Notes: generated from the letters alone by a model not told the origin. A stretch of 64,000 nucleotides of DNA from Styela clava (GCF_964204865.1 NC_135260.1:15770478-15834477), one strand, 5' to 3'. Shown: positions 26,420-63,472, numbered from the stretch's first letter. Numbers and translations: made by a program.

Positions 26420-26900
26420 CGTCTACGGGTGAAAATGTACATGGGTGCAAATGTACGTGGGTGTAAATGTACGCGGGTGCAAAAGTATGTGGGTGCAAAA
26501 GTACATGGGTGTAAGTGTACGCGAGTGCAAAAGCACGTGGGAGCAAATGTACGCTGGTTCAAATGTGTGCGAGTGCATATGTCCAATGGTGCAAATGTCC
26601 GCGGGTTCAAATGTACCGGGTGCAAATGTACATGGGTTCAAATGTCCGTAAGTGCAAATGTTTTTGGGTACAAATATCCATGGGTGCAAATGTTCATGGG
26701 TGAAGCAAAAATCTGCAGGTGCAAATGTATGGGTGCAATTGTTTATGAGTTCAAATGTTCGTATGCAGTATGCAAGTGAAATTGTCCTGGGTGCAAATTA
26801 CAGGTTCAAATGTTCGGGTGCAAATGTAAGTATGCAGATGAAATTGTCCTGGGTGCAAATCATTTGTTCAAATGTACGGGTGCAAATATAAGTGGGTTCA
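26420..26900 (+). repeat. Minisatellite of about 28 degenerate tandem copies of a 17-bp unit, GTGCAAATGTACGTGGG. An inverted partial copy lies at 26113–26140 and direct copies at 26230–26275.
   Basis: Visible periodicity (gtgcaaatgtacgtgggtgtaaatgtacgcgggtgcaaaagtatgtgggtgcaaaagtacatgggtg…). The unit lacks stop codons in several frames on both strands. This produces track ORFs 26113..26625, 26423..26689, 26429..26779, 26445..26651, 26515..26703 and 26652..26891. Confidence 0.85.
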
Positions 26901-38663: not shown

Positions 38664-38986
38664 CTGTTAATCAAAAATATAGCAAAGTTTACTACTTTTT
38701 CAATTGTAAATATATTTACCTATAGCATCTGCGCAAGGTAAATCAAAACGCTATTACGCCTCATACAATTCAGAACAACGTATGGCCTCTTCCACACATA
38801 CAAACTTTATATTTGCTCTAGATTCATTACAAGCCAGAAACAAAGCATACATAACTCCACAAACATTTTCCAATGTGATTTGTACTATTCGAAATAATTA
38901 TTATCTCTTGTGAAAAATGGTATCAACAAATCACATTCTCACATACGACAATCTCCCTTCCTAATCATAATGAATTATCGAGATAC

Positions 38987-39208
38987 CTTTCTGTCATTTT
39001 TGTATAGTTTGAGTCGAAAACAAACCAGTCCAAGTTCAACGGAAAATACAATTTCAAATCTTTTGTCTTCTAACACATAAGATTCAAACATTTTCGCCAA
39101 CGCTACGTCTTCTCTGATTTTATGTCTCAGTCCTTCGATACCGATAAGTCGAAAAACAAACCAAAGTTTCAATGCACGAAATTTTCTGCCTAGAGGAATT
39201 TGACAATG
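38987..39208 (-). CDS. DDC: DDC-like exon 10: [74 protein letters not shown].
   Basis: Acceptor tttcttccag|CAT. Donor AAG|GTATCT. Matches human [67 protein letters not shown]. Coordinates are anchored to track ORF 38975..39334. Confidence 0.82.
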
Positions 39209-39291
39209 CTGGAAGAAACAAAACTTTGTGATAGTCATATCCGTGAATTTAACGCAAAAGTTTTTTTGCAACATTTGCCACGAATTTCGAA

Positions 39292-39393
39292 GCTCCCGCA
39301 GTATGTACACCAAGATGGCGCACAGCCTGAACATAGTATGTGTACCAGGTTAGGTAGGTTTCAGGTTGTCCGCCATCTTGGTGTACATACCAC
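39292..39393. mobile_element. MITE family A, copy 3 (short, right end partly deleted), in the intron between DDC exons 10 and 9.
   Basis: GCTCCCGCAGTATGTACACCAAGATGGCGCACAGCC…CCGCCATCTTGGTGTACATACCACC. Track ORFs 39200..39418 and 39249..39437 lie inside it. Confidence 0.6.
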
Positions 39394-39708
39394 CAAATTT
39401 GTACGTGAAAGCATATGAACCTGTACATGTGTTTCATCTGTAAACTAGGGGGTAATTTGAAAGAGTCAAGAACTTTTCGGTTGTGCTAAATAAGTTGGAT
39501 TTTTAGTATGATGTACATCTATATCTGATAAAAATTGCACAGTCAAGCCATTTATATACAGAAAAATTGATATATGTAAACAATACAAAAATGTGTTAGT
39601 ATATATATATATTCGACCCCGAGATAGATAAATGTATTCAATATTTCTTTGATTGGTTTACATTCATTGTGAAATTGATTTGTTAACAAATTAAGTTAAG
39701 CAGCTTAC

Positions 39709-39799
39709 CCTGTAGTCAATTGCAACGTTTTCCTCGTCGTGGCGTAAATATAATGGATTGAGTTTGAATGAATTGATTAAATCCAAACTATTTTTGACC
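39709..39799 (-). CDS. DDC: DDC-like exon 9: (W)VKNSLDLINSFKLNPLYLRHDEENVAIDYR.
   Basis: Acceptor gtatttcag|G. Donor AGG|GTAAGC. Matches human [32 protein letters not shown]. Confidence 0.8.
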
Positions 39800-40630
39800 C
39801 TGAAATACGTGTTAAACAGTTATTGAATTCATTGGAAAATAAACGTAAAACCTCTTTATTGTACGTTTTTTGAGTATCTCAAAAATGTTGAATCTCACTT
39901 TTTCCGCATGCCCCACCTGTTTGACGCTTGTCTCAGTCGTATCATTTGTCACTCGTTCCCCACGTGTCTCACATGCCCCCCTTGTATCATTTGTTCCACC
40001 AGTCAGTCATACACCACACACAAGTCACACAAAAAAGACAAGTGCGGGCCACGTAGGACAAGTTCAACACATGGAATTCGACATTTTGAGACAACATCGA
40101 TTTTAGGGAATATTTACCCTCGTTATACTCATATAGTTACCCTTGTGTGTTCAACAATAGCATAATATATAAGATTTTACATTGGCAGTTGGCACACGCA
40201 TTTGCTCATAGTCAACTACCATTTCGCAATAAATAAAATTATATTACTTGCTGACTTTGCTAATTATTACATCAAGTTAGAAAAATCTAAATCGCCCAAA
40301 CATTCCAACTATATATAAGACCAACAACTTGCTCAACATAGAAATTGTTGGTTCCCGAAACAAAAAAGATTTAGGATTTGTATATCCATTAGGCTTCTAA
40401 GGGACGAACTCATTATAGTCCTTCTATGGTTTTGCGCTAGTGGATTCGTATACAAGCAAAAGTAAAGACACCCGCTACCAATGATGATCCTCGTTGGGCT
40501 TGACGGAATTTATTTAAATTTATACAATATTACTGAAATTAAACAGCCTTATCGGCCTTAAAGAATAATTTTCCAGCACTATACAAATATAGAAACCGAT
40601 CGGCCACAGTTTTTCATAATATAAACTTAC

Positions 40631-40698
40631 CAAAGTGGTGAGAAGTCGAAATTCACCATCAGCCATTTGTGTGGATTGAAATTGTAAGAGGTAACCAT
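40631..40698 (-). CDS. DDC: DDC-like exon 8: [22 protein letters not shown] + 2 nt. The NPHK motif carries the PLP-binding lysine.
   Basis: Acceptor ttcggtcag|ATG. Donor TG|GTAAGT. Matches human [23 protein letters not shown]. Confidence 0.82.
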
Positions 40699-41113
40699 CT
40701 GACCGAAAGCAATTGGCATGTTATAGTATTGATTTCATAATAGAATGTTTTAGAAAGGGCAACATACGTAATTTAGAAATACGACGTACGAATCAAATAT
40801 GCCGTTTTTAAACATTCACTCGTCGCAATCGAAAGGGGAGGCGGAAGGAATGTAGGAGAAACGTAGTAGTGGAATGTTAAAAAATAAAGCCAATTTGAAG
40901 TTAAAATTTAGTGCTAAATTATGAGAAAATATGAAACGATGTAAAATGGCTTTTTAACGGACATTTCCATTTTTATCTATTGAAGGGGTGAAACAATTGC
41001 TCCAACAGTCAAAAAAATATTTTGATCTTGTTTATTGTCACTAATATTTTGAGTCCGAGTTAATAAATCTGGTTATTCATGCTAAGTAAATTCAGTGTAT
41101 TATGTATTCCCAC

Positions 41114-41208
41114 CTCAATTCCTTTCATTCGATGTCGAAATTCGGGACAAATGAAACTGCATCCGGCGTATGCTGCATCAACATGAAGCCATACATCCTC
41201 TTTGTTAC
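41114..41208 (-). CDS. DDC: DDC-like exon 7: (C)[31 protein letters not shown].
   Basis: Acceptor cttacattcag|GT. Donor GAG|GTGGGA. Nearly identical to human [32 protein letters not shown]. Confidence 0.85.
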
Positions 41209-41350
41209 CTGAATGTAAGAAATTGAAATCGGTTCCTCTGATCTTTTTCGTTAAAATTTTAGGTTGCTCACAAAAGTGCATAGCAATTATAAAAAAAGTG
41301 ATTCATTGACATTTTAAATTGTCATACTCAAATTACCGCCATCAACTTAC

Positions 41351-41417
41351 AAACTTCTCCGATTTCTTGAAGATTGTCAAATGAACAACAGGCCGTTGTA
41401 CCAAGGGTTGCACAAAC
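41351..41417 (-). CDS. DDC: DDC-like exon 6: VCATLGTTACCSFDNLQEIGEV + 1 nt.
   Basis: Acceptor ttaactcag|GTT. Donor T|GTAAGT. Matches human [21 protein letters not shown]. Confidence 0.8.
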
Positions 41418-41706
41418 CTGAGTTAAAAAGAAGACGGTTTTAAAACATATTTCATTCACTACAAATATAACCATGCGAATTGCGTATATTTCAGTTCGAG
41501 ATTCAATTTGCATTAATTTATTATGAGCGTACAACAGCATTTCTCACTCTTTGTCGCGGTCAATTTTACTGATTGTGAACGTATTTGTCCATAAATAATA
41601 GGTGTATTTTAGTCAATTTTCAGAATATATCTCTAGATTGTGATAAAGCATGTTCGACTGAAAAATTTATTCAATATTTCTGTGAGTAATAATATTTAAA
41701 ACTCAC

Positions 41707-41825
41707 ATAAAATGGTATTCTTCCATCATCTTTGTCTTTTTCCATTGCCTTTTTTAATGCTTCTCCTCTAACTGCAATATCCTTATCAACAGTCACTTTA
41801 TGTAAATGCACCATTGCTATGAGAC
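41707..41825 (-). CDS. DDC: DDC-like exon 5: (C)LIAMVHLHKVTVDKDIAVRGEALKKAMEKDKDDGRIPFY.
   Basis: Acceptor ttttcacag|GT. Donor TAT|GTGAGT. Matches human [39 protein letters not shown]. Confidence 0.8.
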
Positions 41826-42229
41826 CTGTGAAAACTTACAATTATTATTTTATTCATTTCGCCTTGAGATTTTTGGTTTTCAAAAAAAATGCGCTATGCT
41901 CCAAAGTGGGCAAGTTTGTCCACAATAAGCATTCTTGTAAGTCAGATGTAAATATTAAAATTATATCTTCGTGTTGAATATTTTGAAATCTACAGTGCAG
42001 TGCACTTTTGTAGATACTAGCACTTCAGATAAAGATATAAAAATATAATATTCATAAAAGAGCAAGTTCGTTACGTTAAACTTAATTTTGTATGCTTCAA
42101 AATTGTTCTGAACGCAGCCGTCTTGATTTTGAAGTAATTGGAAACTGGGCCATCTTATGTTATAAGTCTGTGTAAACTATCATAACGATATCTCGGGGAA
42201 ATATTCGTTGGTGTAAATGTTACAAAATT

Positions 42230-42464
42230 GGCCGCTTCCGTAGTATGTGAACCAAGATGGCGGACACCGGAACGTAGTATGTTTACCAGGTTAGGGTTAG
42301 GCCATAATTCTATTTCAATTTTCCTTATTTTAGTTCTATTACGAGTTCGGGAACTAGCCAAGTGACTCCCGTAGTATTTGTACCTGAAATTTGGCCTAAC
42401 CCTAACCTGAAAGGCATACTACGTTCCGGGTCCGCCATCTTGGTTCACATACCACGGGAGTACC
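42230..42464. mobile_element. MITE family A, copy 4 (long form), in the intron between DDC exons 5 and 4.
   Basis: GGCCGCTTCCGTAGTATGTGAACCAAGATGGCGGACACC…CCGCCATCTTGGTTCACATACCACGGGAGTACC. Flanks ACAAAATT and CAAAAATG. The internal sequence matches 21647–21884. Confidence 0.65.
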
Positions 42465-42708
42465 AAAAATGCAATATACTGATTTGCAATTAACTTTAAG
42501 CAATTCACTTTCGCTTACAGTCGAATGATGGAATGTGGCCTTGAATCGATTCATTTAAAAGTGGTAGTTTCATTCGAAGTCTTTGCTTTTAATAACTGGG
42601 GCCAAGTTCAGTTTCATATCATCATGTAAAGCACTTGTTTAATTCGGGAGATCGCATGCATTTGCCGCCACCTCGGAAACCACGCTATTGATTATGCATA
42701 AAACTCAC

Positions 42709-42867
42709 ATGCTCTTTCTACCGATGAATGACTATATTCTGATGTGTATGCAACAAGTTTTGAGGCAAGCTCATGTTGTGAAATGTTAGGATATATAGCT
42801 TCCAATTTTTTCAGTGTTTTTGTCCTTGCTGCCAGAATTGTCATAATGGTTGCTTCGCTAGCGGTAC
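42709..42867 (-). CDS. DDC: DDC-like exon 4: (G)TASEATIMTILAARTKTLKKLEAIYPNISQHELASKLVAYTSEYSHSSVERA + 1 nt.
   Basis: Acceptor tttttttcag|GT. Donor GCAT|GTGAGT. Matches human GSASEATLVALLAARTKV…KLVAYSSDQAHSSVERAG. Confidence 0.82.
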
Positions 42868-43174
42868 CTGAAAAAAAATTGACAGATATATTTTCATTGA
42901 GAGAATTTATTTCAAATAACCGGTAAAGGAAATATTAGATTGGTTTTAAAGAATCAAAAATCACTCAGCTAATTGGTCTCACTATTCAACAATGGAATAA
43001 ATGTGGTACAAAATAAATATTTCCAAGAAATCTTGAATAAAGCTTAGGTCTTCGTTTAAACCTGACTAATCTCGTAACGTGTCGTCATACAAATTGGTTG
43101 AATAATTGTTAACGTCACGTCGAAGCTTTTACAGTATTCCAAATATTTATAATTGCTGTCTAATCTGTCGTAAT

Positions 43175-43250
43175 CATATTTATTTATCCAACACACATAC
43201 TGTTTATATATATATACAATATAGTATGTGTGTTGGATGAATAAATATAT
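43175..43250. repeat. 25-bp inverted repeat or hairpin abutting the donor of DDC exon 3.
   Basis: atttatttatccaacacacatac…gtatgtgtgttggatgaataaatat, with a (TA)n spacer. The exon 3 donor GTATATATAT is at 43260. Confidence 0.7.
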
Positions 43251-43260
43251 ATATATATAC

Positions 43261-43381
43261 CTTGGACAACCCCCAGTCCTGGGCCAACACCTTTGTGTAT
43301 GAAACAGTCAGGCAAACCAATGGCTTTCCCCAGCCAATCGAGCACTACAGTTTCTAATTCGGTACACGATGGACTTGATGC
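43261..43381 (-). CDS. DDC: DDC-like exon 3: [40 protein letters not shown] + 1 nt.
   Basis: Acceptor caattttag|GCA. Donor CAAG|GTATAT. Matches human [28 protein letters not shown]. Confidence 0.82.
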
Positions 43382-43439
43382 CTAAAATTGAAAAGTAACG
43401 CAGGTGAGAACAGATGAAATGAAATCCCTGTCACAGTCT

Positions 43440-43610
43440 GGTGTTATGTTCACAGCAAAACCTGTCAGCATGTGATAGCGCCCCTATCCTGTTAGAGTAG
43501 GGGGTCGGAGCCTCCCCTTCTACTCCTCCCGTGGAATTCGGTGGAAGCCCTAACCGAACAGCTGGTACGTGAGCCACCATGCGGCGGTGGAGAATCCATG
43601 AAGTCTTTGT
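43440..43610 (-). other. GC-rich block of about 170 bp in the intron between DDC exons 3 and 2, with a 7SL/Alu-like GGTGGCTCACG motif. Possibly a SINE or small-RNA-derived element.
   Basis: The minus strand reads ccgccgcatggtggctcacgtaccagctgttcgg…cacgggaggagtagaaggggaggctccgaccccc. Its composition contrasts with the flanks. Track ORF 43431..43637 is probably spurious. Confidence 0.3.
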
Positions 43611-43910
43611 CATTTTATTATCTTTAACCGGATTCAACCCATAAATTCACACATTGTAATCATCGTTAAGGTGGCACCATGCACCAACCGTCAGACCAAC
43701 GCGCATCGTTAACTAGCGTTATTTAGATATGAAGTATTGCTAGGGCCAAATCAGTGTATTTTCTACAGCATGATAATTTTATCACGTCATCAAATGTTAT
43801 CAAGTTATTAATGTGTTATTATTCTTTTAGCCTCTATTTTTGCATGATTTCCACTTTTTTTGTAGGCCTATATTATTTTATCAAATATCTATATCAGGCG
43901 TCCATCTCAC

Positions 43911-44119
43911 CCACGTAAAGCCAATACATGCACAAGCATCAGACAAAATATCTCCGAGTATTGCTGGATAACTCGTTGCACATGGGAAGTAGGCAAAAAA
44001 TCTCGAAGATTGCCAATGAGTCATCCCTTCCATAACGACTTTGTCAAGGTCAGCAAACAAATCTTCCCACTTTTCTGGATGTTGTGGCGCATTCTCGGGA
44101 ATTAACTTTCTCATAAATC
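43911..44119 (-). CDS. DDC: DDC-like exon 2: (G)FMRKLIPENAPQHPEKWEDLFADLDKVVMEGMTHWQSSRFFAYFPCATSYPAILGDILSDACACIGFTW.
   Basis: Acceptor tgtatttaag|GA. Donor TGG|GTGAGA. Matches human [70 protein letters not shown]. Confidence 0.85.
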
Positions 44120-44583
44120 CTTAAATACAATAACATGAACGTTGAATACTAGAATATACAATAAACTCAGTTTGGTTGACATTCAAATAATGTGAAAAGT
44201 CATATAATAATATCTGAATGTGTAACGCATTCAACCCGATATTGCACCTATTAATATATCTCTCTTGGTAGTTCATGTTCGAATCGCAGCATGCTCTGTC
44301 GAAACTTAATTAAAGTTAGTAAGTAGGCCTACGTCAATCTGGTTAGCGACTTAACGGAACCTTATTTTTTCAATCAAAATACACGATTAGAGAACACAAA
44401 TTTATTTATATACAAATGATAATAAATTTTCAAATTGTTTGAAAACCGTGTGTGAATGTTGTAGTATATTTTAAATCTATTCCTCAAAACACCATGTATC
44501 ACACTTATAAAAATTGACTTATGAGTAGCAGTACAGTTAGAAATACCCAACTTTAATCAAACATATAGGTCATCATATTTTAC

Positions 44584-44743
44584 CTGGCTGTACAGATGGA
44601 AATGCTTGTCTTCCATCCAAACTTTTGTAATAGCCGATGACGTACTCTATCATGTCTTTCGCAGCTTTTGTGAAGGCTTCATCCGACATACCCATTCTGT
44701 AAAACTTTTCGCCATTTTCAGGAATAACCCTGTTTTCTGCCAT
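44584..44743 (-). CDS. DDC: DDC-like PLP decarboxylase exon 1: MAENRVIPENGEKFYRMGMSDEAFTKAAKDMIEYVIGYYKSLDGRQAFPSVQP + 1 nt.
   Basis: First ATG after an in-frame TAA. Donor CCAG|GTAAAA. Matches human DDC [36 protein letters not shown]. The start may instead be the internal ATG MGMSDEAF. Confidence 0.75.
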
Positions 44744-47700
44744 TTTTTATAAAAGTGTACTTGCTGAGGTTCTAAAATATTCCGCACTCTTTTGTAAGTA
44801 TCTTTAAGATATTCTCAACAAGGAGCTAGATAATAGATATTTAGAGATGTTTTACGACGTTTTAAAATCATTTAATAAGCAAATGCATCAAATAAATGCA
44901 ACTTCCATCATGTATTATGGCAGTTCAATGTTTCCATGGTAATATCGTGCTTACATTTAGAAAAAAGTTGCAGAGATAAAAGCATCCCAAAACTAGTGGT
45001 CTCACCTCTATGCGTGGACCAGTTTCTAGCTACTCAAACCTAACCAACTATTGCACACACCTACCGTGCACTGTAGATATACTTTATCAAAGTTGTGTGA
45101 TTAAATAAATATTGGTAATCTGATCAGAACAATCAATGACAAAATTAAATATTAAACTGCTAAGATTCTTACGGAATTGTCATATTTATCATAAATACTA
45201 TAAATATCATATTTATTTTTACCTGAAATGGTCCTCAATATTTTGAAAATGATGCTAACTGAAACCTTATTCCAGCAAAATGCTATCCTTGAATACTGCA
45301 AAAATTTGAATGTGTGTGGATTTTAGTATATGACCAACATTTGGTTAATGTGTACCAGAGGTAGATGCACAATTGATAATTATTGTCAAAACGAATGGCA
45401 TTTTGAAGTATGTTACTAAAATACTTGTTTGATTCCTGTGGAAAATTATGCCCCAATTGTTACTTGTAATGAATGTTTGCACCTTTTTTAATATCATAAG
45501 CAAAATTTATCGGGGAAAATACGTTTTGCTCGCTGTAATCGCGTCAGATTTTGATTTTCATGCCACCATATTCAGCCACTACATCGTTGGATCAAATCAG
45601 ACTTTGAATTGCTTAGTCAGCAAATATAGCCAGTAAGTCAAATAATACCCATACTTATTCAGTCTCATAACAACTGAACAACCGTGATGAGGTGATTTTA
45701 TGAGAGGTAATATCTTTGCTGAAATCGGAATTGCTCCATTGAAATTACAATTATTTATTTTAGTTTCACAATATCTGTTATATTTGTTTGATTTTTGTAT
45801 TTATAGTCTCGTCTTCAGAGTAAGTCGCAAAAAGTTGCCCTCATTTAGGAATAAACTTGCTTTACAGCTTTTTATAAATCTTATCAACTTACTTCACCTG
45901 ATTTCCTGAAATTTCCTATCCCTCGGGAAGTCTTTTCTAACATAAAACCTAGTAGTAATTTGATATGAATGCAAAAAATTCTTTTTCTATTTTAACCATC
46001 GAATTCTGGTATATCACAGCTAAAACAGACTCGCCATGATATCTTTAGAGTTAAATTGAACAACGTTTAAGCTTTTTAGACTGTAATACCAGCGTTATGG
46101 TATTCAAACAGGATAAAAAATGAAAATCAGTACAAATTTCTTATAAAGGACGTTTTAATACGATTTTTATTGATTTTAAAATTGTGTACATTGTTGTACT
46201 AATGCTCTTCATTGTTTGTTTCGGACATGTGATAGGCGAGGTGTCGTCAGCAATTTGTGAATTGTAAGTAACAACACCTGCTTATGACAACGTAGCCCTT
46301 TTTACCAAATATTTATAGGGCCTATCATGTGTGACACAATACACACTAGCTATACTGAAAGAAAAATCAATCAATATTTGATACCAATTCAGTCGATAAA
46401 ATTGAGTGGAAAATGCCGTATCATGCACTAAAAACAGAATAAATATAAATGTCATCTGTGCGACAGGAAATGTGATTTGTGAATCAAATTATATTCCTTT
46501 CCGATAAATTGCGTTCGCGACGAAGTAGCCTGCTTATTTTAAATGTTGAAGCCAAATTTATGGAACACCAATTCTAAAGAATTAATAATTGTTCATTAAA
46601 ATGATCTTTGTTTGATAAAATCGATAATGTTACCATCAAGTAATGTACTTTTTGCCAGTTCATAAATTAGTTGGACTAGGTCACCGGTTTTTAACCAGCG
46701 GACCATGGTTCGCTGCTGGGCCACAGAAATATTTCCAGGTGGGCCACAAATCTACCAAAAAATTGCTACTAGAGTTATTGATTGATGAATTAAATTAGTT
46801 AATTATGATGGCGGTAGCAGTAAATGATGCTGCTGTTGTTTGCTGCAGAGTGGAAATTTTCATTTTTAAGGTGAAAGTGTGTATATTGCGAGAAGAATTA
46901 TTTGTATTTGTTGTAGTTTTATCCTGACATGGGAAAAATATTGAATTGAATTTAATAAATAATTTGGTATAATAGTTTTATGTTATAAGCAATATCGATT
47001 TATTCTGAAATAAGTGCTTACATTTTGTTGTCAGATATGAAAATTTCAGTATAGACGAGATTAGGTACATCTACATTAGTGAGAAGCCACTGTAGGGTTG
47101 GAACGAGTCTGGCATCACAGAGATTTGACGAATCTGAGTAACAGGTCAAGGACTCGAATCGAATCTTCACAGTCCGTGACGTCACAATTGATGAGAAGAA
47201 AAACACGTTTTTGACAATGCTACAGCAACGTGCGCTCACAAACATACGTCATAGCTCATATTTTATGGCTAATAGTTCCGCAGATAGCTGTTGAATCATT
47301 TTATGAATCTATTTTCCCTCTTTTTGGCGGCCACAATACAAACGTGAACGTGGGTCAATATGCGCCTTGGTTGGGAACTGGATTTCCAGCCCATCACCGT
47401 TCGTTAATTCTGGGCAGCTATTTAGCAATTCATACATGTCAATATGAAAAATGAAAAGCTTTTGATTGCAATGCTTCCCCATATTTCCAGATACTTCTAG
47501 CTGTAAACTTATTATGTCGCGTGCGTATGGTAGAGAGATGCCACTCTTTAATACAATGAGGTACATCTGCTTGCAATTTAGTAGTTCATGTAAAAGTTCT
47601 AAAATTCTACATGCTTTCTATTTCTCCCTTTTTAGGGAAAAGATTGCACGTAATAAACTCGATTTAAAAAAATATATTGATGAAATTACCAGAGCATGTT

Positions 47701-51637: not shown

Positions 51638-51643
51638 TTTATT
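51638..51643 (-). terminator. AATAAA polyadenylation signal overlapping the stop of the pentraxin exon.
   Basis: The minus strand reads GAT TAA ATAAAATGG immediately after the CDS. Confidence 0.55.
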
Positions 51644-52298
51644 TAATCAACACAGTCGGTATCGGGATCCACTGTAACAGATCCTTTCACGGTTACAACG
51701 TCTGGGATCAGATGGAAAAGTGCATCGCTGGGACAATCACAATCATTGTTTTCTAAGACTGAAATTTCAGCATTCGTAAGTTTCTTCGACCACATCATCA
51801 AATTTTCTATTGTTCCGCTGAACGTTTCAGTAGAGGCGGTCCATCCACCTCCCATTTCATCTTGATCTTGACCGATTACTATCGTTCCAAATCCCGCTGG
51901 CAACGACGTTATTCCTGCTAATGTACGCGTAACGTAATGAGTACCGTCGACAAAAAGCTGTACCTCTGTATCAGTAGTCGAGAGGACCCAACAAAAATGA
52001 AAAATATTAACAGTTCCGGCAGTTCTTAAAGAGATCGATGCTGTATTTGTTGTATCATCATTGTCATTTAAAAAAGCAAAGGTATGACTTTCAGGATCGT
52101 CAAAAATAATCTTGATAGCATTGTCGTATGTTTCTGTAGCGTAAGAAAACAGAGTTCCTGATCCGACCGCTGTTCCAGGTGTTACTTTAAACTTGCTGCA
52201 GATTGTAAACTCTGTGAGTTCAGGCATATCTATATCTACCAACAAATAGTTCTCAACTGCTGGTGTACCAGGAAATATGTAACGTGTTTGTGGGCAGG
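51643..52298 (-). CDS. Pentraxin-domain terminal exon: (T)CPQTRYIFPGTPAVENYLLVDIDMPELTEFTICSKF…HFCWVLSTTDTEVQLFVDGT…IVIGQDQDEMGGGWTASTETFSGTIENLMMWSKKLTNAEISVL…DCVD, then stop.
   Basis: Collinear with the CRP/SAP pentraxin fold: FVFPKES…FTVCLHF, the HxCxS/TWxS signature (here HFCWVLS), EFWVDG → QLFVDG, and ILGQEQDSFGG…VNMWDFVLSPDEI → VIGQDQDEMGGG…LMMWSKKLTNAEI. A phase-1 acceptor gaattttcag|CC lies inside the track ORF; the track's M is TTG. The stop TAA overlaps AATAAA. Confidence 0.82.
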
Positions 52299-53347: not shown

Positions 53348-53476
53348 TTGAGCATATAGCAGCTACGGAGTAAAATCCATCTTCACATACACAACCTTGA
53401 GCTTGTGTCAGCACGTTCAAAATTCTACAAACTTGATTTGTTGTGCATGCTATATTGCCATTAGCACATTCATCAG
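53348..53476 (-). CDS. EGF-like exon A: DECANGNIACTTNQVCRILNVLTQAQGCVCEDGFYSVAAICS, 6 Cys, phase 1-1.
   Basis: Acceptor caattacag|CT. Donor TCAA|GTAAGC. Joined to the pentraxin exon, A+CC gives Thr with no frame break. Carries the CxC…GF/Y EGF signature. Confidence 0.7.
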
Positions 53477-54146
53477 CTGTAATTGACAGTAAAAATTTAA
53501 GCCTATTCGTTATTTCTGTACAAAGCATTGTCAGTTCAGTTCAAACCATATGCTGTTAGGTTTGCAGGACTATGAAAACAATATAACCAAAATATCGGTG
53601 TTTTTTACACTTCAGAATCACATGGCTCTCTCGATTCGTAGTGCACAATTTGTGTACTATTACTGAAATACAACCATTACTTAGGAGGCCATTAAAATGC
53701 CTATTAGTGTCATATATCCATTCCTATTCCCAATACAACTTCCTTTATCTATCATTCTATCTCATAAAAATATTCGGAGTTTACCCAAAGCTAATAAACT
53801 GTGGACAGGTATCGTTATGAGATTTGTGATTGTAATTAAAACACTAGTAAATATAAAATATTGTAGTACCATAAACCCAAGGGTATGAGCAATTCAAGAG
53901 TAGGGGGGTAGTCAGTGCCTTCAAATCTCTCTGGGAAGACTTTATATATTTGTTTGTTTGTCTAGGTTTTGCTGATTTATTGAGTGCATGCTTGTCGTTT
54001 CAAACATATTTTTTAAGTATATCCACATCTTTTTGACCAGTTGCCTTTTTTTTATCAATGTAATCAATAATCAGTAATTTATTTTTTCACCATGCTGAAA
54101 AATACGAATTCTACATACACATTTAAAAAATATATATAAAAAAATC

Positions 54147-54382
54147 GGGGCTCCCGAAGTATGCGAACCAAGATGGCGGACGTCGGAATGTAATATGTGT
54201 ACTAGGTTAGGGTTAGGCCATAATTTTAGGTATAAATACTACGGGAGGCTCTTGGCTAGTCTTCGAACTGATAATAGGACTAAAATAAGAAAAATTGGAA
54301 ACAAATTATCGCCTAACCCTAACCTGTTACCCATGTTACGTTCCGATGTCCGCCACCTTGGTTCGCATACTTCGGGAGCACC
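54147..54382. mobile_element. MITE family A, copy 5 (long form, internal core inverted relative to copies 2 and 4), in the intron between EGF exons B and A.
   Basis: GGGGCTCCCGAAGTATGCGAACCAAGATGGCGGAC…GTCCGCCACCTTGGTTCGCATACTTCGGGAGCACC. 8-bp TSD AAAAAATC on both sides (54139–46 and 54383–90). Confidence 0.7.
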
Positions 54383-54552
54383 AAAAAATCGCATATATAA
54401 AAAAAATTGCAAAGAAGAACAAATAATATATATTATTTAGTAATACGTAAAGTGATCTGAAGTCTTTCACAAACAAGTTTCTTGTGCTTAAAACAAGATC
54501 ATTTCAGACAAAAATATAATAAAATAATTATCAGTATAAAAATACAACTTAC

Positions 54553-54684
54553 CAACACATCCTGCACCAGGCACCACCGAAGGCATATGGTTGGTGTCGC
54601 AAATGCATCGAGCAACAGGACTTCCCGTTTCCTTGGAAATTATGCAGTGGGTGTTGGTTGGACACGTTATTCCCTTACACAAAT
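54553..54684 (-). CDS. EGF-like exon B: LCKGITCPTNTHCIISKETGSPVARCICDTNHMPSVVPGAGCV, phase 1-1.
   Basis: Acceptor ttttttgtag|AT. Donor GTTG|GTAAGT. Confidence 0.7.
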
Positions 54685-56066
54685 CTACAAAAAACGTTCC
54701 TGCTTAATTTAATGGGAACATAATAAGTACTCAGATCTATTTTCAATATTTACAAACAAATGCGCGTTAGGATTTTTCTCAACATATGGTACCAACCAGT
54801 GATGAATCTAACTTAGTGAGTCTTTTTTTTATTTTTTGTGTCATAGTGGGTTTGATACAGGTTTATTCTGTAGTTCTTAAATTCACTGCTGAAAGTGATG
54901 GACACATGCCAAATATTTTAAAATATTAGGCTTTTGAAACAAAATGCAAAAACAGCATGAACCCATCTGTGCCAGGTGTTTCCCATTGTTTAAGTTCACT
55001 TCTATCAAACTAAACATGAGTTAACATCGAATCCGACGAATTTCATCCATTTTTACTGCAATTCTGTCGTCAATTTATCTTTGTTTTTATAGCTTACATT
55101 TCTGAAGGAGTATTGCATTTATTACGATACTATTTGTAGCAAGCTATTCTATTTTTGTGTTCAGAATATTCATTGCAAACTGCCGTGGTGCAATATGGTA
55201 GCAATAAAAATTAACAAGATCACTGCAAACAACATTGAAAGGAATGGATTCGTTATTGGTTTTGATGCTCTGTTTTATATCTGTTAACATGGTTTCTCGA
55301 TAAATAACAAAACATGGACAATTTTAGGCATATGGGATTACGGGAATAGATCATGAAACTCAAACAACTGAATTTTGGATGTGAAATGAAACACGGTGAA
55401 TCACAGTGTGATGGACAAATTGGTGTTGACGGTCACTGATGATCACGTTCGGCTGCAGTATGAAACAGAACACTCACAAGGTGTAAAGAGAATGAAAAAA
55501 ATTAATGGAAAGGTATTGCGGATAATGTTTTTTTTCTAAAGAGATCAACACACAAACATTCAACGACCGTACAGGATATTCAGCTTATGCTGCTGCGAGA
55601 TGGGGCAAAATAAACATTTAATTAACAGAAAGTTGCTGGCATATACGGTACATATTAAATTGGTCATTATTACTGCAATAGCTTAGGTGTTTCAAAAGTA
55701 TGACAGCCCGGATGTTCCTATACATTCGAGTATCTTTTGTTTGGTCATTTCTGGCCCAAGCCTTGTTTAAACTAGGTTTGTGTTTTTTGTAATTTTTTTT
55801 TGTTTGTGTGCTGGTGGGCGGGCACATGATATTTCCCATGTTTTTTTAGGTTTTTTTTTAGGCTTTTTTAAAGATTTTGCTCGCCTTCCAGAATTCTTCA
55901 TTTTAAATCTATCTATCTAAGAATAATTTCAAATTTGGAAAAAAAAAAACTAAAAACTCTTGCACTGTTCGTTTAACTTGTTTGCGGAATACTTGCTCTA
56001 TCGCCAAGGTGCTGTATCCCAATAGCATTTTTTGTCATAACTATAAGGCAACACCACCCGACTTAC

Positions 56067-56207
56067 CTAGGCAGTTCAGGGTATCAGAAGGATCCTTGTA
56101 AAAACCCGTTAAACAGACACAACCTTGCAAATTGGTGGGTGGATCTACAAGGGCACAAACAGCGTTATCCTTGCACGTGGTAGTTCCGGCAGACGAGCAT
56201 TCATCCA
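56067..56207 (-). CDS. EGF-like exon C: VDECSSAGTTTCKDNAVCALVDPPTNLQGCVCLTGFYKDPSDTLNCL, phase 1-1.
   Basis: Acceptor tttgaacag|TG. Donor CTAG|GTAAGT. Paralogous to exons A and E (the QGCVC…GFY motif). Confidence 0.72.
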
Positions 56208-56502
56208 CTGTTCAAAAAATAAAACCAAAGGTTAAACCTGGCCTCATTTGGCGATATTATTATGACCATCCTATATGGTCGTAGATTCAATTTATATTTT
56301 GCCGAATAATACAGGGATAAAAATAAATATAGGAAAATATTGTTCAATTTTCATAAAGACTTCTCATGTATTTAAAATTCATACAGAAGTTAACTCTATA
56401 AATTAAAAATATATATTGAAGTAGTCAATTTGTTTTAGAAGTAACACATTATGTTGATTGTTGTATATTGAGAAGTTTCAACAATAATGCATTTGAATTG
56501 TG

Positions 56503-56571
56503 TGCTACCGAAGAATGTGCACCAAGATGGCGCACAACCTGAGCCCTAACCGATACTTCTGGAGCGCCTTG
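56503..56571. mobile_element. MITE family A, internally deleted derivative of about 70 bp, in the intron between EGF exons D and C.
   Basis: GTGCTACCGAAGAATGTGCACCAAGATGGCGCACAACCTGA…CTTCTGGAGCGCC. Confidence 0.45.
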
Positions 56572-56885
56572 AATTGTTGTCATCCCAATGAAAACTGTAG
56601 CTATGTTTCAAATAGCTCGTCTCCGCCTGAGTTTTCTATATTTTAAACGCTTGAATTTACATGCCAATGTCCATTAATGATAAAAAGGAGTATCCCAATT
56701 ATAAAATCCGAGTAAATCTTTAAATTGTGGAAAAAAAGAGGAAAAATTAAACCAATATATAATTAATGTTTGCCCTGTGATTTCACAAGTTATGAGATAG
56801 AAAGCCAAACTAATTCATTCCAAAGTTCAAGGAATACATTTTGCTACTTTAACTTCTCTATATCATTAGTAGTGTAGAGAAAAAA

Positions 56886-56992
56886 GGCGCTCCAGAAGTA
56901 TGTGCACCAAGATGGCGCACAACCTGATAACCCTGGCACACATACTATGTTCAGGTTATGCGCCATCTTGGTGCACATACTTCGGGAGCACC
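56886..56992. mobile_element. MITE family A, copy 7 (short form), whose end lies 15 bp from the splice donor of EGF exon D.
   Basis: GGCGCTCCAGAAGTATGTGCACCAAGATGGCGCACAACC…GCGCCATCTTGGTGCACATACTTCGGGAGCACC. TSD GAGAAAAA and AAAAAAAA. The exon donor GTGAGTA starts at 57007. Confidence 0.7.
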
Positions 56993-57007
56993 AAAAAAAA
57001 TACTCAC

Positions 57008-57142
57008 AAAAACAGTCAGTACTGGGAGCTGGTTCAGGCAGGTAATTGTCTTTACAGATACATTTTCCAGCTGGTGGCGTAGATAGGTGATTCAAAACTT
57101 TTATTAAATTGGTCCCACAAGATGCCAGTCCATCCAGTGGAT
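57008..57142 (-). CDS. EGF-like exon D: PLDGLASCGTNLIKVLNHLSTPPAGKCICKDNYLPEPAPSTDCF, phase 1-1.
   Basis: Acceptor ccgattgttag|AT. Donor TTTT|GTGAGTA. Track ORF 56844..57149 reads past this donor into an intronic MITE. Confidence 0.7.
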
Positions 57143-57537
57143 CTAACAATCGGAATTTTTGTTACTCTTTCATTGTACTAGAGTTAACTAGCGTTCATTA
57201 ATGCTCAAATTGAAAATGGCGCCGTTTTACTTCTAGAACACCTTTTGGACTTATTTGATATTATCCCTAAACTGTCAAGATTCAGTGGCATTAACCCAAA
57301 AAGATGTGTTGGAAGTACCAGGTTTAGTACTTATCTTTTGTTTTAGGTTTAGATCACGTGTCTGTTTGTAATACGGGATATGACAATTAATATCAGTGTT
57401 GTAGTCACCCGCCACAGTTCATGCAAATGAACTTCCGAACTATCGTTTTACCTACCTAACTTATTCAAAAATAAAAAATCGCCCTCTTATTTATATTATT
57501 TTTATGTATTCATATACAAGTACACAGCTTAACTTAC

Positions 57538-57669
57538 CAACACATACGCTATCAGACGGTTTGTAATAATATCCTTCATCACAAACGCATCCTTGAGCAC
57601 GGGTAGCACCATCGACGATACAGCATGTCGCTTTGGTACAAGTAATACCTGACGTTGCGCATTGATCGT
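57538..57669 (-). CDS. EGF-like exon E: DQCATSGITCTKATCCIVDGATRAQGCVCDEGYYYKPSDSVCV, phase 1-1.
   Basis: Acceptor caaaatttag|AC. Donor GTTG|GTAAGT. Confidence 0.72.
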
Positions 57670-58315
57670 CTAAATTTTGAATGTTGATATTGAAGACCAT
57701 TATGTTTGAGATTCAATAGTTGTGTCAGAAGTTAAATATATATATTAGTATATAACTTTTAAACAAATTGAACAAAATGAGATTTTCATTAGCTTCTATT
57801 TCGAGAAAGGCCTCGTTGGGTAAACACAGGTTTGTGAAGTCGTAGTTTGGAATGTTTCTATTGATGCTGATATTGGAATCGACATTTGACTCGGTGTCGC
57901 AAAAAGGAAATTAAGAAGGCGCTTGCATTGGCCAAAGTTTGTTGGTTTTTTTTTATAACTTGTGGATAAGACGGAGGGCTTTTTTCAGCTTGGAGTCGGG
58001 TAGCCAAAGTCGGCATTTCTGTCTGCCTGTATTCGGAATCCTTTTTTAAGTATCGATCCTAAATATTTGTACGATTTTTTTCCCCAACAGCACTAGATTA
58101 AAAATCTAGTTCATGTCGCATACCAGATTAAGCTAGCCAGTAATACCTACTTTTCGCGCTGCGTGGACGTGGCAGTCCCCCTACGAACTACGAACCAACA
58201 CGAAACCTGTGGATTTGACAGTACATTGAGAACAGTTTTAATTTACGTTTAATTTTTTGTATCAAGAATTCGCATCAGTCAGCAGTGATAGAGAAATTAG
58301 AAATGTAAAACAAAC

Positions 58316-58447
58316 CTATACATTCATGGTTTTCAGTAGCATGAGGCATGTAGTTGGCATCACATTCGCATTTTCCATTTGAAAGAACACCTCCTACTGG
58401 ATTTATTACACATTGTGCGTTTACGCATGATGGGTCGCATGCAGTCG
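58316..58447 (-). CDS. EGF-like exon F: TACDPSCVNAQCVINPVGGVLSNGKCECDANYMPHATENHECI, phase 1-1.
   Basis: Acceptor tttgacttgaag|CG. Donor ATAG|GTTTGT. No ORF in the six-frame track covers this exon; it was found by translating the minus strand. Confidence 0.65.
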
Positions 58448-58834
58448 CTTCAAGTCAAATAACGAGAAATAAAGAGGTTAGTTATTAAACACCAATACCC
58501 ATATGGTTCTATAAGCACCATGAACCACGCTGCAAAATAATCTTTAAAAACGCTTCTCTCAAAACCATTTAGGTTTAGAGCACTACCATAACAAGTAAAC
58601 ATTTAAAATCGACTGATGCGCTAGTTAAGAAGCAAATCAACCTTTGTCTCAACAACATCAACAATTTAGGATAACGTTCTATAAACCCATCTTCGTGTCT
58701 AGAAATATGTCATTCGTTAAGGATATAGGAGCGGTCAAAGACAACTATTAGTTATCAGAGTGTAAGATATAGGCAAAAAATTAATGAGAAAGGGAGTAGA
58801 TATAAAATATAATCAGGAAAAAAATAAAAATTAC

Positions 58835-58963
58835 AATAGCATCCAGCCCCGTCCGCTCCAGTTGGCAAGTATCCTTTATCGCATTTGCAACTTCTTTTCT
58901 CGGTAGCTTTGTCAAATACACAAACAGCGTTTGCTCCACAATCAAAACCAATACATGTATTTA
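58835..58963 (-). CDS. EGF-like exon G: NTCIGFDCGANAVCVFDKATEKRSCKCDKGYLPTGADGAGCY, phase 1-1.
   Basis: Acceptor tatttgtttag|TA. Donor TATT|GTAATT. Confidence 0.68.
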
Positions 58964-59388
58964 CTAAACAAATACAGATATTTATAATAAAATATAACGT
59001 ACAGCCTTATCGGGATACACAGGTTGTTCACAACGCCTTTCCAAAATTCAAAAATGTAACAATCAATCGATAATATTTTCAACTGTAAAGAACCCTTATG
59101 GTCACAATGTATGCATATATATAAAAAAAATGGAATTAATGCTACGTAATACAATATTACGGCATTGTACGAATTTGCTAAATTCAAATTAGCAATAACG
59201 TTGACAATTACAAAAAGGTTAGAATCTGAATAATTTAAAATGGGTAAAATTAGAGAATGCAAATGTTGGTTCGCGCGAAATAAATATATTTAGATGCACT
59301 AATAAAACCAATCGAAGTATATTTGCTTTGTAAAGTTAACAGGTGCTTATATCGATGTTACAAACAGTGAAGTTTTGAAGGAATTTAC

Positions 59389-59517
59389 CGCTGCATGTTT
59401 CTCCTTCATCAATAATAGTATTTTCCGTTGGACAATAACATTCTTCAAAGCAACTCCCCTCGTGAATCACACAAATTGAATCCTCGCTGCAAACTTTTCC
59501 ACTTTTACAAGTTTTTT
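59389..59517 (-). CDS. EGF-like exon H: KTCKSGKVCSEDSICVIHEGSCFEECYCPTENTIIDEGETCS, phase 1-1.
   Basis: Acceptor ttgcaattccag|AA. Donor AGCG|GTAAAT. Confidence 0.68.
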
Positions 59518-61090: not shown

Positions 61091-61277
61091 GGTCAAGTGG
61101 AGGATCAACTGTACAAACTTCGCAAAGTCCATGAAAAATGTCATCACATGATTTATCATCAATCCATGCATGATCAAACCAGTCCGGATTTAACAATGAA
61201 ACTAGACAAGTGCTTGTGACGTCACTGGGACTACCCGGTTTCCAGTCCACTGCACTACTTCCGGTATTTAAAGCAGT
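61091..61277 (-). CDS. C-type-lectin-like domain, C-terminal half exon: TALNTGSSAVDWKPGSPSDVTSTCLVSLLNPDWFDHAWIDDKSCDDIFHGLCEVCTVDPPLD + 1 nt, phase 0-1.
   Basis: Follows the CTLD pattern W..G.P…C…..W.D..C…..LCE. The EPN/QPD and WND Ca/sugar positions are degenerate here (KPG, WID). Acceptor ttacacgaag|ACT. Donor GACC|GTGAGT. Joined to EGF exon H, C+AA gives Gln. Confidence 0.6.
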
Positions 61278-62677
61278 CTTCGTGTAAAAGAATGAAAAAA
61301 AAAATATTTTATTTGAAAATAATTTAGGCAGTGGGAGCTTTGGGGATACGCAGGCCAAACCTTCGTTCCTGTTGTGACTGAACTGCTTGCCGACTAATGG
61401 CAGATTTCGACTGCTTGTCTAAATTTTCATATGTCGAGCTCATAGCACCAAAACCTAATTCTCAAAGTGTTTTATATCGTCTATTACGGTAACAGTTGCA
61501 CTCACGATTTTTTGAATCCGTAAACTGTCCGCAGGATATTTGCACCTGCATACTTTTGCACTCATCGTCATTTGCACCCACAGATGTTAGCACCAGATTG
61601 GAAATCAAGACAGATTACTATTTGTAATTTGCTTGTATTCCTGGTTAGTGTTGCTACGTTTTTTGCAATCATTGCTGGTTACAATCCCATCCCACTTTTT
61701 CTTTTTGTTGGTCATTTTCTTTCAACGAAGTAACGCAAACGTAGTCGAATTTACGGTGATTTTCTAGTCAGTACACATAGGCAATCATATCGTACGAAAA
61801 CAGGCCACAAATAAATTTACAACGTCAGAGTTAATTAACTAATAATGCAAGACAAGAGAAACGTCAATAGCGAACAATGAAAAAAGAGAAAACTGAGAAC
61901 GTGGGTGCATATTTCCGCGGTTGCAACCGTGCGTTGATAAAACTGTGCCTGGGGGCAAACATTCATGGGCACAAAAGTATGTAGGTGCAAATACCCTGGA
62001 TGAAATTTTCTGGTGCGAACCGTCAATCATATTATAACGCGTGGATGGTTACTGAGATGAGAGCAAACAGTCTCTAATGAAAAGACCTATAAAATAAACC
62101 TAATTTTAGCTCAATTTCCATTTATATAACCTAAAACTAGTTAGGCCAGACGAGCACAACTTTTTATGTACGATGAGATTAAAAAATTTTCAGGTAAATC
62201 TATACTTTATTTTAAATCCTATAGCTTCCATTTTCGATTGAAGTTTTGCTCGTTATATTTTGATCAGGGATTCAAATAAGTTGTAGCAACTAACCCCATC
62301 ACCGGCAACAAACGAAGTTCCACTTTTTCGAAACCCTGTGTATGTAATGACATCACTATCAAGTGTATATCCATTCACTTTGAAGTAATAAAGAATTTTC
62401 CTGTAATAAAGTTCATTCTATTTAATATTATCCTATTACATTCTATTTAATAGACTTGTTGTGTTTATTACTTATGCATGTCTGAAAGTGTTAAAAATCC
62501 CTGTTGAGAATGAGTATTTTACTTTCCCACGAAAGAATAATAATCGTACTGGTGTTTATTCTGTTGTAACAAATTTATAAACATTCTCAAAAACATTTCA
62601 AGTTTTCGGTAAGAAGTTGAGCCGTTGATAAAACAAACTTTCTCGCAAATTCAAAATAAAAACTGTTACTTCAAAAC

Positions 62678-62820
62678 TGATCCTGTATTGACAGCCTGTA
62701 TAGCGAGTTTTCCACCGTGCTCTTGACAAATCCGATCGGTTACATGGTATGCACCTGGCGGAGTCAGAAAATATTCACACCCGTTTTTAGGATCAAATTT
62801 TGGAATAGCTGGAGGATATC
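62678..62820 (-). CDS. C-type-lectin-like domain, N-terminal half exon: (G)YPPAIPKFDPKNGCEYFLTPPGAYHVTDRICQEHGGKLAIQA(VNTGS). The 3' boundary is uncertain: a phase-0 donor at 62693 (GCT|GTCAAT) or 62678 (TCA|GTTTTG).
   Basis: The C.YF……C…GG.LA.I pattern matches the start of a CTLD. Acceptor tacattttacag|GA is phase 1 and matches the upstream CTLD-C exon. A middle WIGL segment is not confidently located. Confidence 0.45.
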
Positions 62821-63312: not shown

Positions 63313-63472
63313 CAACGGGAACCTCACAAAGCCCGAACTCTGTTGCCCAGCATGGATTATCATATATTAATACAGAGCCACTGTCGTCTCTGAGATATCC
63401 GCAATCATAATCACTAGTTGTTGCCGAAGGTTGGTTTGGAGCCCAAGGAGTTTGTGTATGTTCAGAATTTAT
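63313..63472 (-). CDS. Second CTLD C-terminal half exon: INSEHTQTPWAPNQPSATTSDYDCGYLRDDSGSVLIYDNPCWATEFGLCEVPV + 1 nt, phase 0-1.
   Basis: Acceptor tgttatag|ATA, directly after an in-frame TAG. Donor GTTG|GTATGG. Has the same 0-1 phase class as the other CTLD-C exon. Its N-terminal half and the gene's 5' end must lie beyond 64000. Confidence 0.5.

Follow-up and report, generated by a model that had tools for sequence, protein, structure and literature searches.

Results

The window (64,000 nucleotides of Styela clava DNA) contains an array of EGF-like exons that is the central part of LOC120346894, a minus-strand gene uncharacterized in RefSeq, which extends upstream past the window end at 64000. 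Splicing 13 exons of the window gave an exact match to residues 133-904 of the 904 residues of XP_039272614.2, and the splice of the eight EGF exons (352 aa) is an exact substring of the same protein, residues 335-686. XP_039272614.2 begins with a signal peptide and one EGF, continues with two C-type-lectin-like domains and the eight EGF modules, and has a pentraxin domain at its C-terminus. LOC120346894 encodes a secreted lectin–EGF–pentraxin mosaic protein, already annotated and unstudied. Its features in the window are listed below in transcript direction.

63313..63472, minus strand: last exon of the first C-type-lectin-like domain; phase 0 to 1, from the 13-exon splice
62670..62820, minus strand: second C-type-lectin-like domain, exon 1 of 3; phase 1 to 2, assigned by motif and position
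62295..62400, minus strand: second C-type-lectin-like domain, exon 2 of 3; phase 2 to 0, from the 13-exon splice
61091..61277, minus strand: second C-type-lectin-like domain, exon 3 of 3; phase 0 to 1, from the 13-exon splice
59389..59517, minus strand: EGF exon H, module 1; 129 nt, phase 1-1; a subtype of its own, seven cysteines
58835..58963, minus strand: EGF exon G, module 2; 129 nt, phase 1-1; type 2
58316..58447, minus strand: EGF exon F, module 3; 132 nt, phase 1-1; type 2; donor gtttgt
57538..57669, minus strand: EGF exon E, module 4; 132 nt, phase 1-1; type 1; seven cysteines (TCC)
57008..57142, minus strand: EGF exon D, module 5; 135 nt, phase 1-1; type 2; lacks Cys1 and Cys3
56886..56992, no strand assigned: MITE in intron D/C, same family as that in intron B/A; 15 nt from the exon D donor
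56067..56207, minus strand: EGF exon C, module 6; 141 nt, phase 1-1; type 1
54553..54684, minus strand: EGF exon B, module 7; 132 nt, phase 1-1; type 2
54147..54382, no strand assigned: intron B/A, MITE, a small inverted-repeat transposon; terminal inverted repeats of 80 nt
53348..53476, minus strand: EGF exon A, module 8; 129 nt, phase 1-1; type 1
51643..52298, minus strand: terminal coding exon, pentraxin domain; phase-1 acceptor, Pfam match, splice confirmed

The pentraxin domain matches Pfam Pentaxin (PF00354) with an E-value of 2.1e-20 and 73.7 bits against a cut-off of 25, and an AATAAA signal overlaps its TAA stop codon (51643-51645). The PROSITE pentraxin signature, H-x-C-x-[ST]-W-x-[ST], was unmatched, the corresponding stretch reading HFCWVLST. 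Pfam Lectin_C (PF00059) is matched by the first lectin domain of a collinear paralogue (E-value of 2.5e-14), and none was reported in XP_039272614.2 at an E-value of 0.1 or better. The second domain, which has no significant Pfam match, appears to be lectin-like by its motif (W..G.P…C…W.D..C…GLCE) and its position. Introns within the lectin domain are of phase 2 and phase 0; every intron between domains, including those at the lectin/EGF and EGF/pentraxin boundaries, is of phase 1.

Exons H to A encode one EGF-like module each, and all eight have an AG acceptor and a GT donor. The earlier note had described eight EGF exons of 129–141 nt, all of phase 1-1, and the exact RefSeq match of the splice bears this out, down to the coordinates it gave for A (53476), C (56207), E (57669) and the span of the array (53348-59517). 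It was also right that any subset of the exons can be skipped in frame, since a stop codon arises at none of the upstream-to-downstream junctions among the eight. Extracellular modules lie mostly on 1-1 exons, which is a general rule for shuffled metazoan modules (PMC7259759), and each of the eight exons has this layout of one module per exon with phase-1 introns on both sides.

The cysteine spacing C-x(3-8)-C-x(3-7)-C-x(6-14)-C-x-C-x(8-15)-C fits seven of the eight modules, exon D being the exception. No Pfam EGF profile reached its threshold with the modules, the best (EGF_MSP1_1, EGF_3 and EGF_CA) scoring 9-17 bits where 27-28.5 is the cut-off, and profile searches with the modules against the PDB gave nothing significant (E-values of 0.017 or worse). 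The sub-threshold Pfam and PDB matches were all of EGF type, which is suggestive only. Of the two elements of the EGF fold, a two-stranded beta hairpin and a mini-sheet C-terminal to it, the hairpin is present in the AlphaFold models of exons C and G (pLDDT 74.4 and 80.8, respectively). The top Foldseek matches of these two models in the PDB, with TM of 0.69 at most and a best E-value of only 0.3, are nearly all EGF domains and include NELL, Ripr, mouse and human EGF, Pvs25/Pfs25 and MSP1-19. The PROSITE EGF_2 pattern, C-x-C-x(2)-[GP]-[FYW]-x(4,8)-C, is matched by exons E and A only. Neither the pattern for calcium-binding EGF modules (cbEGF), [DEQN]-x-[DEQN](2)-C … C-x-[DN]-x(4)-[FY]-x-C, nor the Asx-hydroxylation site has a match in XP_039272614.2 or its paralogue. 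A, C and E start with D-E/Q-C, a feature not kept in the paralogue, where NPC, DKC and DAC stand instead. Together, the cysteine spacing, the sub-threshold matches and the modelled fold, with no match reaching significance, suggest that the eight modules belong to the EGF-like superfamily.

A division of the modules into an A/C/E and a B/D/F/G subtype had been proposed in the earlier note. When the pairwise alignment of the eight exon translations suggested there was run, the subtype structure was found: A, C and E (type 1) are 44-49% identical to one another (z = 6.4-9.9 against cysteine-fixed shuffles), and B, D, F and G (type 2) are more loosely alike (z = 3.2-5.7 by the same measure). The partition {E,C,A}|{G,F,D,B} ranks first among the 35 possible 3/4 partitions within LOC120346894, and first of 35 again in the off-diagonal comparison with a paralogue. 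Subtype profiles built from the paralogues alone and then scored on the window exons uphold it as well, with E, C and A at 38-47 bits on type 1 and 10-14 bits on type 2, and G, F, D and B at 20-38 bits on type 2 and 8-24 bits on type 1. Exon H matches neither profile and is a third kind of module. The subtypes differ in the Cys1-Cys2 loop (6-7 residues in type 1 versus 3-4 in type 2) and in the motif after Cys5 (G[FY]Y versus N[YH][ILM]P). In transcript direction the array reads H-2-2-1-2-1-2-1. The order 2-2-1-2-1-2-1 is one of 35 arrangements and, since 10 of these 35 have no adjacent type-1 pair, the alternation by itself is weak statistically. The two subtypes and the one-domain-per-exon layout are real, yet ordinary for animal extracellular proteins.

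The paralogues LOC120339454 and LOC120339170 (another chromosome) are collinear with LOC120346894 and share the order H-2-2-1-2-1-2-1. In full-length alignment LOC120339454 is 39% identical; it has neither gained nor lost an EGF module, and all eight follow the same order. The best positional match of a module to the paralogue is that of H to p1 (score 125), and the lowest is that of exon D to its counterpart (score 44). Exon D has four cysteines and lacks Cys1 and Cys3, which are the partners of one EGF disulfide; module 5 of the paralogue retains six. The lost disulfide and the poor match could mean that constraint on this module is relaxed.

Types 1 and 2 are homologous (hhalign E-value of 4.9e-6), and the closest pairs, in the window gene and in a paralogue alike, are E-C within type 1 and D-B among F, D and B. 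These pairs agree, weakly, with a single tandem duplication of two exons, a [type 1, type 2] unit, from E-D to C-B. Repeated duplication of a two-exon unit, as put forward in the earlier note, stands in outline as duplication, through the hhalign match and the closest pairs. The unit step itself is weak, its signal being a single topological congruence with a chance expectation of roughly 1 in 3. The DNA of the EGF exons has only one shared patch, of 30 nt and 77% identity. Alignment of the flanking introns, also suggested there and now run, found only transposon (MITE) ends in common. The MITEs account for the only intron-to-intron similarity in the array and have no part in gene function; a solo terminal repeat is also present, at 56502-56542.

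Discussion

We consider it about 75% probable that LOC120346894 is a lectin–EGF–pentraxin gene with an ancient, constitutive stalk of eight EGF modules, its capacity for exon skipping being a by-product of module history and not evidence for a diversity mechanism. Since the collinear paralogues are only 39% identical and almost no similarity remains between the exons at the DNA level or between the introns, the array is taken to be ancient and fixed and not a recent expansion. It would have been assembled and multiplied through exon shuffling and tandem exon duplication, as in animal extracellular modules. Old duplications, probably including that of the pair E-D to C-B, would have set the order of the modules, and every module would have kept its place from a time preceding the split of the gene family. 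Most likely the eight modules make up a stalk, constitutive and stabilised by disulfides, that, judging from the architecture only, would set a fixed distance between the N-terminal lectin-like heads and the pentraxin domain.

The subtypes could instead reflect functional or structural convergence, at inter-module interfaces or ligand sites, of modules that arose one by one. The structural nature of the subtype differences (the Cys1-Cys2 loop and the motif after Cys5), the conservation of the order in the paralogues, and so its being under selection, and the single congruence behind the unit duplication would all agree with this. However, the type-1 identity spans the whole length of the modules, beyond the motif positions, which suggests common descent, and the combination of E-C with D-B as closest pairs recurs in two genes. 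We therefore regard convergence as unlikely.

The earlier note had seen in the exon structure a candidate for cassette-exon diversity. On this reading some or many of the eight EGF exons would be skipped in various combinations, to give lectin–pentraxin isoforms differing in stalk length or composition. Nothing specific was found to support this, and the claim is left unsupported, not refuted. All eight exons are of phase 1-1 and no skip junction yields a stop codon, but shuffled extracellular modules have phase 1-1 by default and phase 1 is common to the lectin and pentraxin boundaries as well, so it is not specific evidence for skipping. There is a precedent in aggrecan G3, where EGF exons are alternatively spliced (PMC4648834), exon D is degenerate with a MITE 15 nt from its donor, and the exon F donor gtttgt looks weak; against this, the EGF exons have canonical splice sites, which are not weak in comparison with those of the lectin exons. 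All RefSeq models covering the array that were retrieved, from LOC120346894 and its paralogues, contain eight EGF modules and bear no isoform label, and the 90% cluster holds only XP_039272614.1 and.2, two annotation versions of a single protein, both with 904 aa, eight modules and no isoform label; inclusion of all eight exons is judged from models for which short reads were the main source. That the eight modules are all kept collinearly across ~39% identity argues that each is needed. Nor do the introns hold duplicated alternative exons, since a six-frame profile scan found exactly eight EGF-like stretches (49-64 bits), the next best scoring 9 bits or less. Taken together, we find cassette usage of the array quite improbable.

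A narrower proposal, that exon D alone is decaying or preferentially skipped in an otherwise constitutive array, draws on the loss of Cys1 and Cys3 where the paralogues have six cysteines, the lowest positional score (44), the MITE beside its donor and a pyrimidine-poor acceptor tract (0.47). The exon nevertheless keeps an intact frame, is present in the RefSeq model, scores 35 bits on the paralogue-only type-2 profile and has no amino-acid difference between XP_039272614.1 and.2. Furthermore, since both partners of one disulfide are gone, no cysteine is left unpaired, and the loss looks like a tolerated structural change rather than decay. Decay or skipping of exon D is accordingly very improbable in our estimation, and the constitutive stalk of eight modules remains the preferred reading.

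Arrays of phase 1-1 EGF exons of the fibrillin/LTBP and Notch type, in Patthy's exon-shuffling class, resemble that of LOC120346894 in having one module per exon, phase-1 flanks and tandem exon duplication, and in forming the stalk of a secreted mosaic protein. Unlike the cbEGF arrays of fibrillin and Notch, however, the modules here are too divergent for any of the Pfam EGF thresholds and are without calcium-binding and Asx-hydroxylation signatures. Their Cys5-Cys6 loops have 10-15 residues and the linkers between modules only 3-4; the published values for hEGF are 8 and 6 residues, respectively (PMC2725086). The G3 region of the lecticans aggrecan and versican likewise has single-exon EGF modules beside a three-exon C-type lectin domain, and in human aggrecan both EGF exons are alternatively spliced (PMC4648834). 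Aggrecan G3 is the best precedent for the cassette-exon idea. In lecticans the order is EGF, lectin, CRP with one or two EGF modules, whereas in LOC120346894 lectin precedes eight EGF modules, and the protein has no Ig/link domains, glycosaminoglycan region or CRP and ends in a pentraxin domain. Lectican membership was rejected, as Pfam finds no link, Ig or CCP domains and the domain order is different.

Selectins share an N-terminal C-type lectin domain followed by EGF-like modules, with one module per phase-1 exon, but LOC120346894 has two lectin-like domains and as many as eight EGF modules, and its protein carries a pentraxin domain at the C-terminus and is without CCP repeats or a transmembrane segment. 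The paralogue XP_039263183.1 was named "SVEP1-like" automatically by NCBI, and SVEP1/polydom too is an extracellular protein with EGF-like repeats and a pentraxin domain. At roughly 3,500 aa SVEP1 is far longer than the 904-aa protein of LOC120346894, and this assignment was rejected since Pfam finds no von Willebrand A, sushi/CCP or HYR domain in that protein or the paralogue; the resemblance reflects common domains, not orthology. The mutually exclusive Ig exons of arthropod Dscam have no more in common with this array than the broad notion that tandem paralogous exons can be a source of isoforms. Arrays of the Dscam type offer many near-identical alternatives for one domain position, whereas the exons here are distinct, positionally conserved modules with no intronic copies and no annotated isoforms.

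As things stand the locus is of little significance, being a textbook mosaic extracellular gene of phase 1-1 modules whose model is already in RefSeq. What is new is modest: a small Styela gene family of unusual architecture, in which two lectin-like domains are joined to eight EGF modules and a pentraxin domain at the C-terminus, of which we found no mention in the literature searched, and an EGF stalk with a fixed, positionally conserved order of three kinds of module, including a probable two-module duplication unit. Tunicates are invertebrate chordates without antibody-type adaptive immunity, and it is conceivable, though we hold it to be extremely unlikely, that this lectin–EGF–pentraxin family uses its eight EGF exons combinatorially for a splicing-based diversification of innate recognition. 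Up to 255 in-frame skipped forms per gene would then be available, and skipping would alter how far, or in what geometry, the sugar-binding heads stand from the pentraxin domain. If regulated skipping were true, the gene would be of interest as a candidate for innate-immune recognition that can be tuned, and this in a chordate relative.

Gene identity and architecture

The window is AT-rich eukaryotic DNA with a G+C content of about 35%. Eight short cysteine-rich open stretches lie on its minus strand between 59517 and 53348, and in each a single AG…GT pair delimits an exon of 129-141 nt with phase 1 at both ends. In gene order these exons encode EGF-like modules 1 to 8:

59389-59517, minus strand, exon H, phase 1-1
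58835-58963, minus strand, exon G, phase 1-1
58316-58447, minus strand, exon F, phase 1-1
57538-57669, minus strand, exon E, phase 1-1
57008-57142, minus strand, exon D, phase 1-1
56067-56207, minus strand, exon C, phase 1-1
54553-54684, minus strand, exon B, phase 1-1
53348-53476, minus strand, exon A, phase 1-1

The coordinates and lengths in the earlier note agree exactly with these calls. The gene was identified through its adjacent pentraxin exon: with these 217 aa as query, a full HMMER scan hit a protein of 904 aa (98% identity), XP_039272614.1, annotated as 'uncharacterized protein LOC120346894 [Styela clava]'. In the newer version, XP_039272614.2, residues 335-686 are an exact match to the spliced eight-exon translation, and 13 spliced window exons correspond to residues 133-904 with zero mismatches. 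Since the splice matches this independent gene model exactly, all of the exon boundaries are confirmed. Of the 904 residues, 10 are not the same in the two versions, and all but one of these lie in the C-terminal 570 residues comprising the EGF array and pentraxin; they are probably haplotype differences between assemblies.

XP_039272614.2 consists of a signal peptide, an N-terminal EGF that lies beyond the window, two C-type-lectin-like domains, the eight EGF-like modules and a pentraxin domain (Pfam PF00354, E 2e-20), after which the stop codon overlaps an AATAAA signal. Since the predicted product is without a membrane anchor, it is probably secreted. Scanning the window with Rfam and for tRNAs gave no matches, nor did NCBIfam, and a literature search on the locus names and on Styela pentraxin and lectin proteins found nothing relevant and no mention of LOC120346894.

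EGF assignment of the modules

The best reading of the eight modules is that they are divergent EGF-like domains, although this is not established statistically. The six-cysteine spacing with C-x-C is present in seven of the eight, and two match the PROSITE EGF_2 pattern; none of the eight reaches the Pfam EGF thresholds. Profile searches against PDB sequences gave weak matches only, to the EGF regions of Eph receptors, Ripr, Pfs25, NELL and factor VII. AlphaFold models of exons C (pLDDT 74) and G (pLDDT 81) predict an EGF hairpin, and the top Foldseek matches of these models were almost all EGF domains, yet with E >= 0.3. Exons H (59389-59517; GSCFEEC) and E (57538-57669; TCC) each encode a seventh cysteine that the paralogues retain at matching positions and that could engage in an additional disulfide, between modules or between molecules.

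Two module subtypes

The earlier note had proposed two subtypes within the array, and this was borne out by pairwise comparison, by partitioning and by paralogue-derived profiles. The modules of exons A, C and E (type 1) share pairwise identities of 44-49% with z = 6.4-9.9 against shuffles in which the cysteines were held fixed, and those of G, F, D and B (type 2) are more loosely related (z = 3.2-5.7, same shuffles); exon H is an outlier to both. The split {E,C,A}|{G,F,D,B} ranks first among the 35 possible 3/4 splits, both within the gene and when the window exons are compared with non-corresponding modules of one paralogue. Profiles made from the paralogue modules alone also sorted the window exons exactly as originally proposed. 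The two types are homologous to each other (hhalign E 4.9e-6) and differ in the Cys1-Cys2 loop, of 6-7 residues in type 1 versus 3-4 in type 2, and in the motif following Cys5.

Two familiar distinctions were considered as the basis of the subtypes and rejected. Neither calcium-binding EGF signature is matched by the modules, which are therefore not calcium-binding EGFs, so binding versus non-binding does not separate the types. Similarly, since the Cys5-Cys6 loop is long in all eight modules, the subtypes do not represent the hEGF/cEGF dichotomy (PMC2725086).

The subtypes had also been described as alternating. From the first module to the last, the order is H-2-2-1-2-1-2-1, and strict alternation is therefore limited to the last six modules and does not extend to the whole array. 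The alternating pattern is one of 35 arrangements.

Duplication history and paralogues

Two paralogues, LOC120339454 and LOC120339170, lie on another chromosome and share the architecture of the window gene. Aligned over its full length to the window protein, LOC120339454 is collinear at 39% identity, each EGF module pairing with its positional counterpart, which means that the array and its module order are older than the gene duplication and have been kept module for module. Among the 155 proteins retrieved, made up of the 150 top pentraxin relatives and the cluster members, these EGF subtypes are confined to those from Styela clava.

Repeated duplication of a two-exon unit was the origin first suggested for the array. 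A recent tandem duplication is rejected, since the introns have in common only the terminal repeats of one family of small inverted-repeat transposons (MITEs), and similarity in the exon DNA is limited to one 30-nt patch (77% identity), around the QGCVC codons of A, C and E. Duplication is partly supported, but as an ancient event. In both the window gene and the paralogue the closest type-1 pair is E-C and the closest among F, D and B is D-B, and this one congruence tentatively suggests that a [type 1, type 2] unit was duplicated once in tandem, E-D to C-B. Units of the form [type 2, type 1] do not fit these pairs.

Repeats and neighbouring genes

The MITE-like family has terminal inverted repeats of 40-80 nt around the core CCAAGATGGCG, of which the window contains nine occurrences (0.01 expected). 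The EGF-array introns hold two copies and one solo end.

54147-54382, MITE-like family
56886-56992, MITE-like family
56502-56542, MITE-like family, solo end
about 21668, MITE-like family
39310-39381, MITE-like family
42252-42443, MITE-like family

At 26426-26893 lies a minisatellite (about 17 copies of the 16-nt unit GGGTGCAAATGTACGT, also scored at a 48-nt period). Several of its reading frames are open on either strand, and the cysteine-rich ORFs that result are spurious; translated ORFs in the lectin-domain intron at about 61840-62050 are similar to these in composition. At 7019-7391 a 188-nt unit is present in two tandem copies, 100% identical, and is either a very recent duplication or an assembly artefact. 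The minus strand at 30942-33554 encodes a complete 870-aa major vault protein with the full set of Pfam vault repeat and shoulder domains in one uninterrupted ORF. The gene appears intronless, whereas its neighbours have many introns. Between it and the lectin–EGF–pentraxin gene lie the exons of a pyridoxal-dependent decarboxylase gene of the aromatic amino acid or histidine type (about 38975-44746, minus strand), one of which matches Pfam Pyridoxal_deC (E 7.6e-20).

Exon skipping

The array layout had further been put forward as a candidate for isoform diversity. The arithmetic is right, in that all eight exons are phase 1-1 and none of the possible skip junctions introduces a stop codon, so any subset can be skipped in frame. 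Human aggrecan provides a genuine precedent: its single-exon EGF modules adjoin a three-exon lectin domain, and the EGF exons are alternatively spliced (PMC4648834). However, phase symmetry is not diagnostic of skipping, since exon shuffling has left animal extracellular modules mainly on 1-1 exons (PMC7259759), and the lectin/EGF and EGF/pentraxin boundaries are also phase 1 (the lectin-internal introns being phase 2 and 0). Both RefSeq versions and every paralogue model spanning the array contain eight modules, and none of them carries an isoform label. Hidden alternative or pseudo-exons are rejected because translating the window in all six frames yields exactly eight EGF-like stretches, and the splice sites of the array are canonical and on par with those of the lectin exons. 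The layout lends no specific support to isoform diversity.

Exon D (57008-57142) is the sole exon with features hinting that its use might be relaxed. It has lost Cys1 and Cys3, while the paralogues retain six cysteines at module 5; its acceptor tract is pyrimidine-poor, and a MITE lies 15 nt from its donor. Since Cys1 and Cys3 are partners of one canonical EGF disulfide, their loss leaves no unpaired cysteine. Against relaxed use are its intact frame, its inclusion in the RefSeq model and its good score against the paralogue-derived type-2 profile. Exon skipping in LOC120346894 is unsupported, though it may occur, and the EGF array adds a new, uncharacterised example to a type of gene structure that is very well known.
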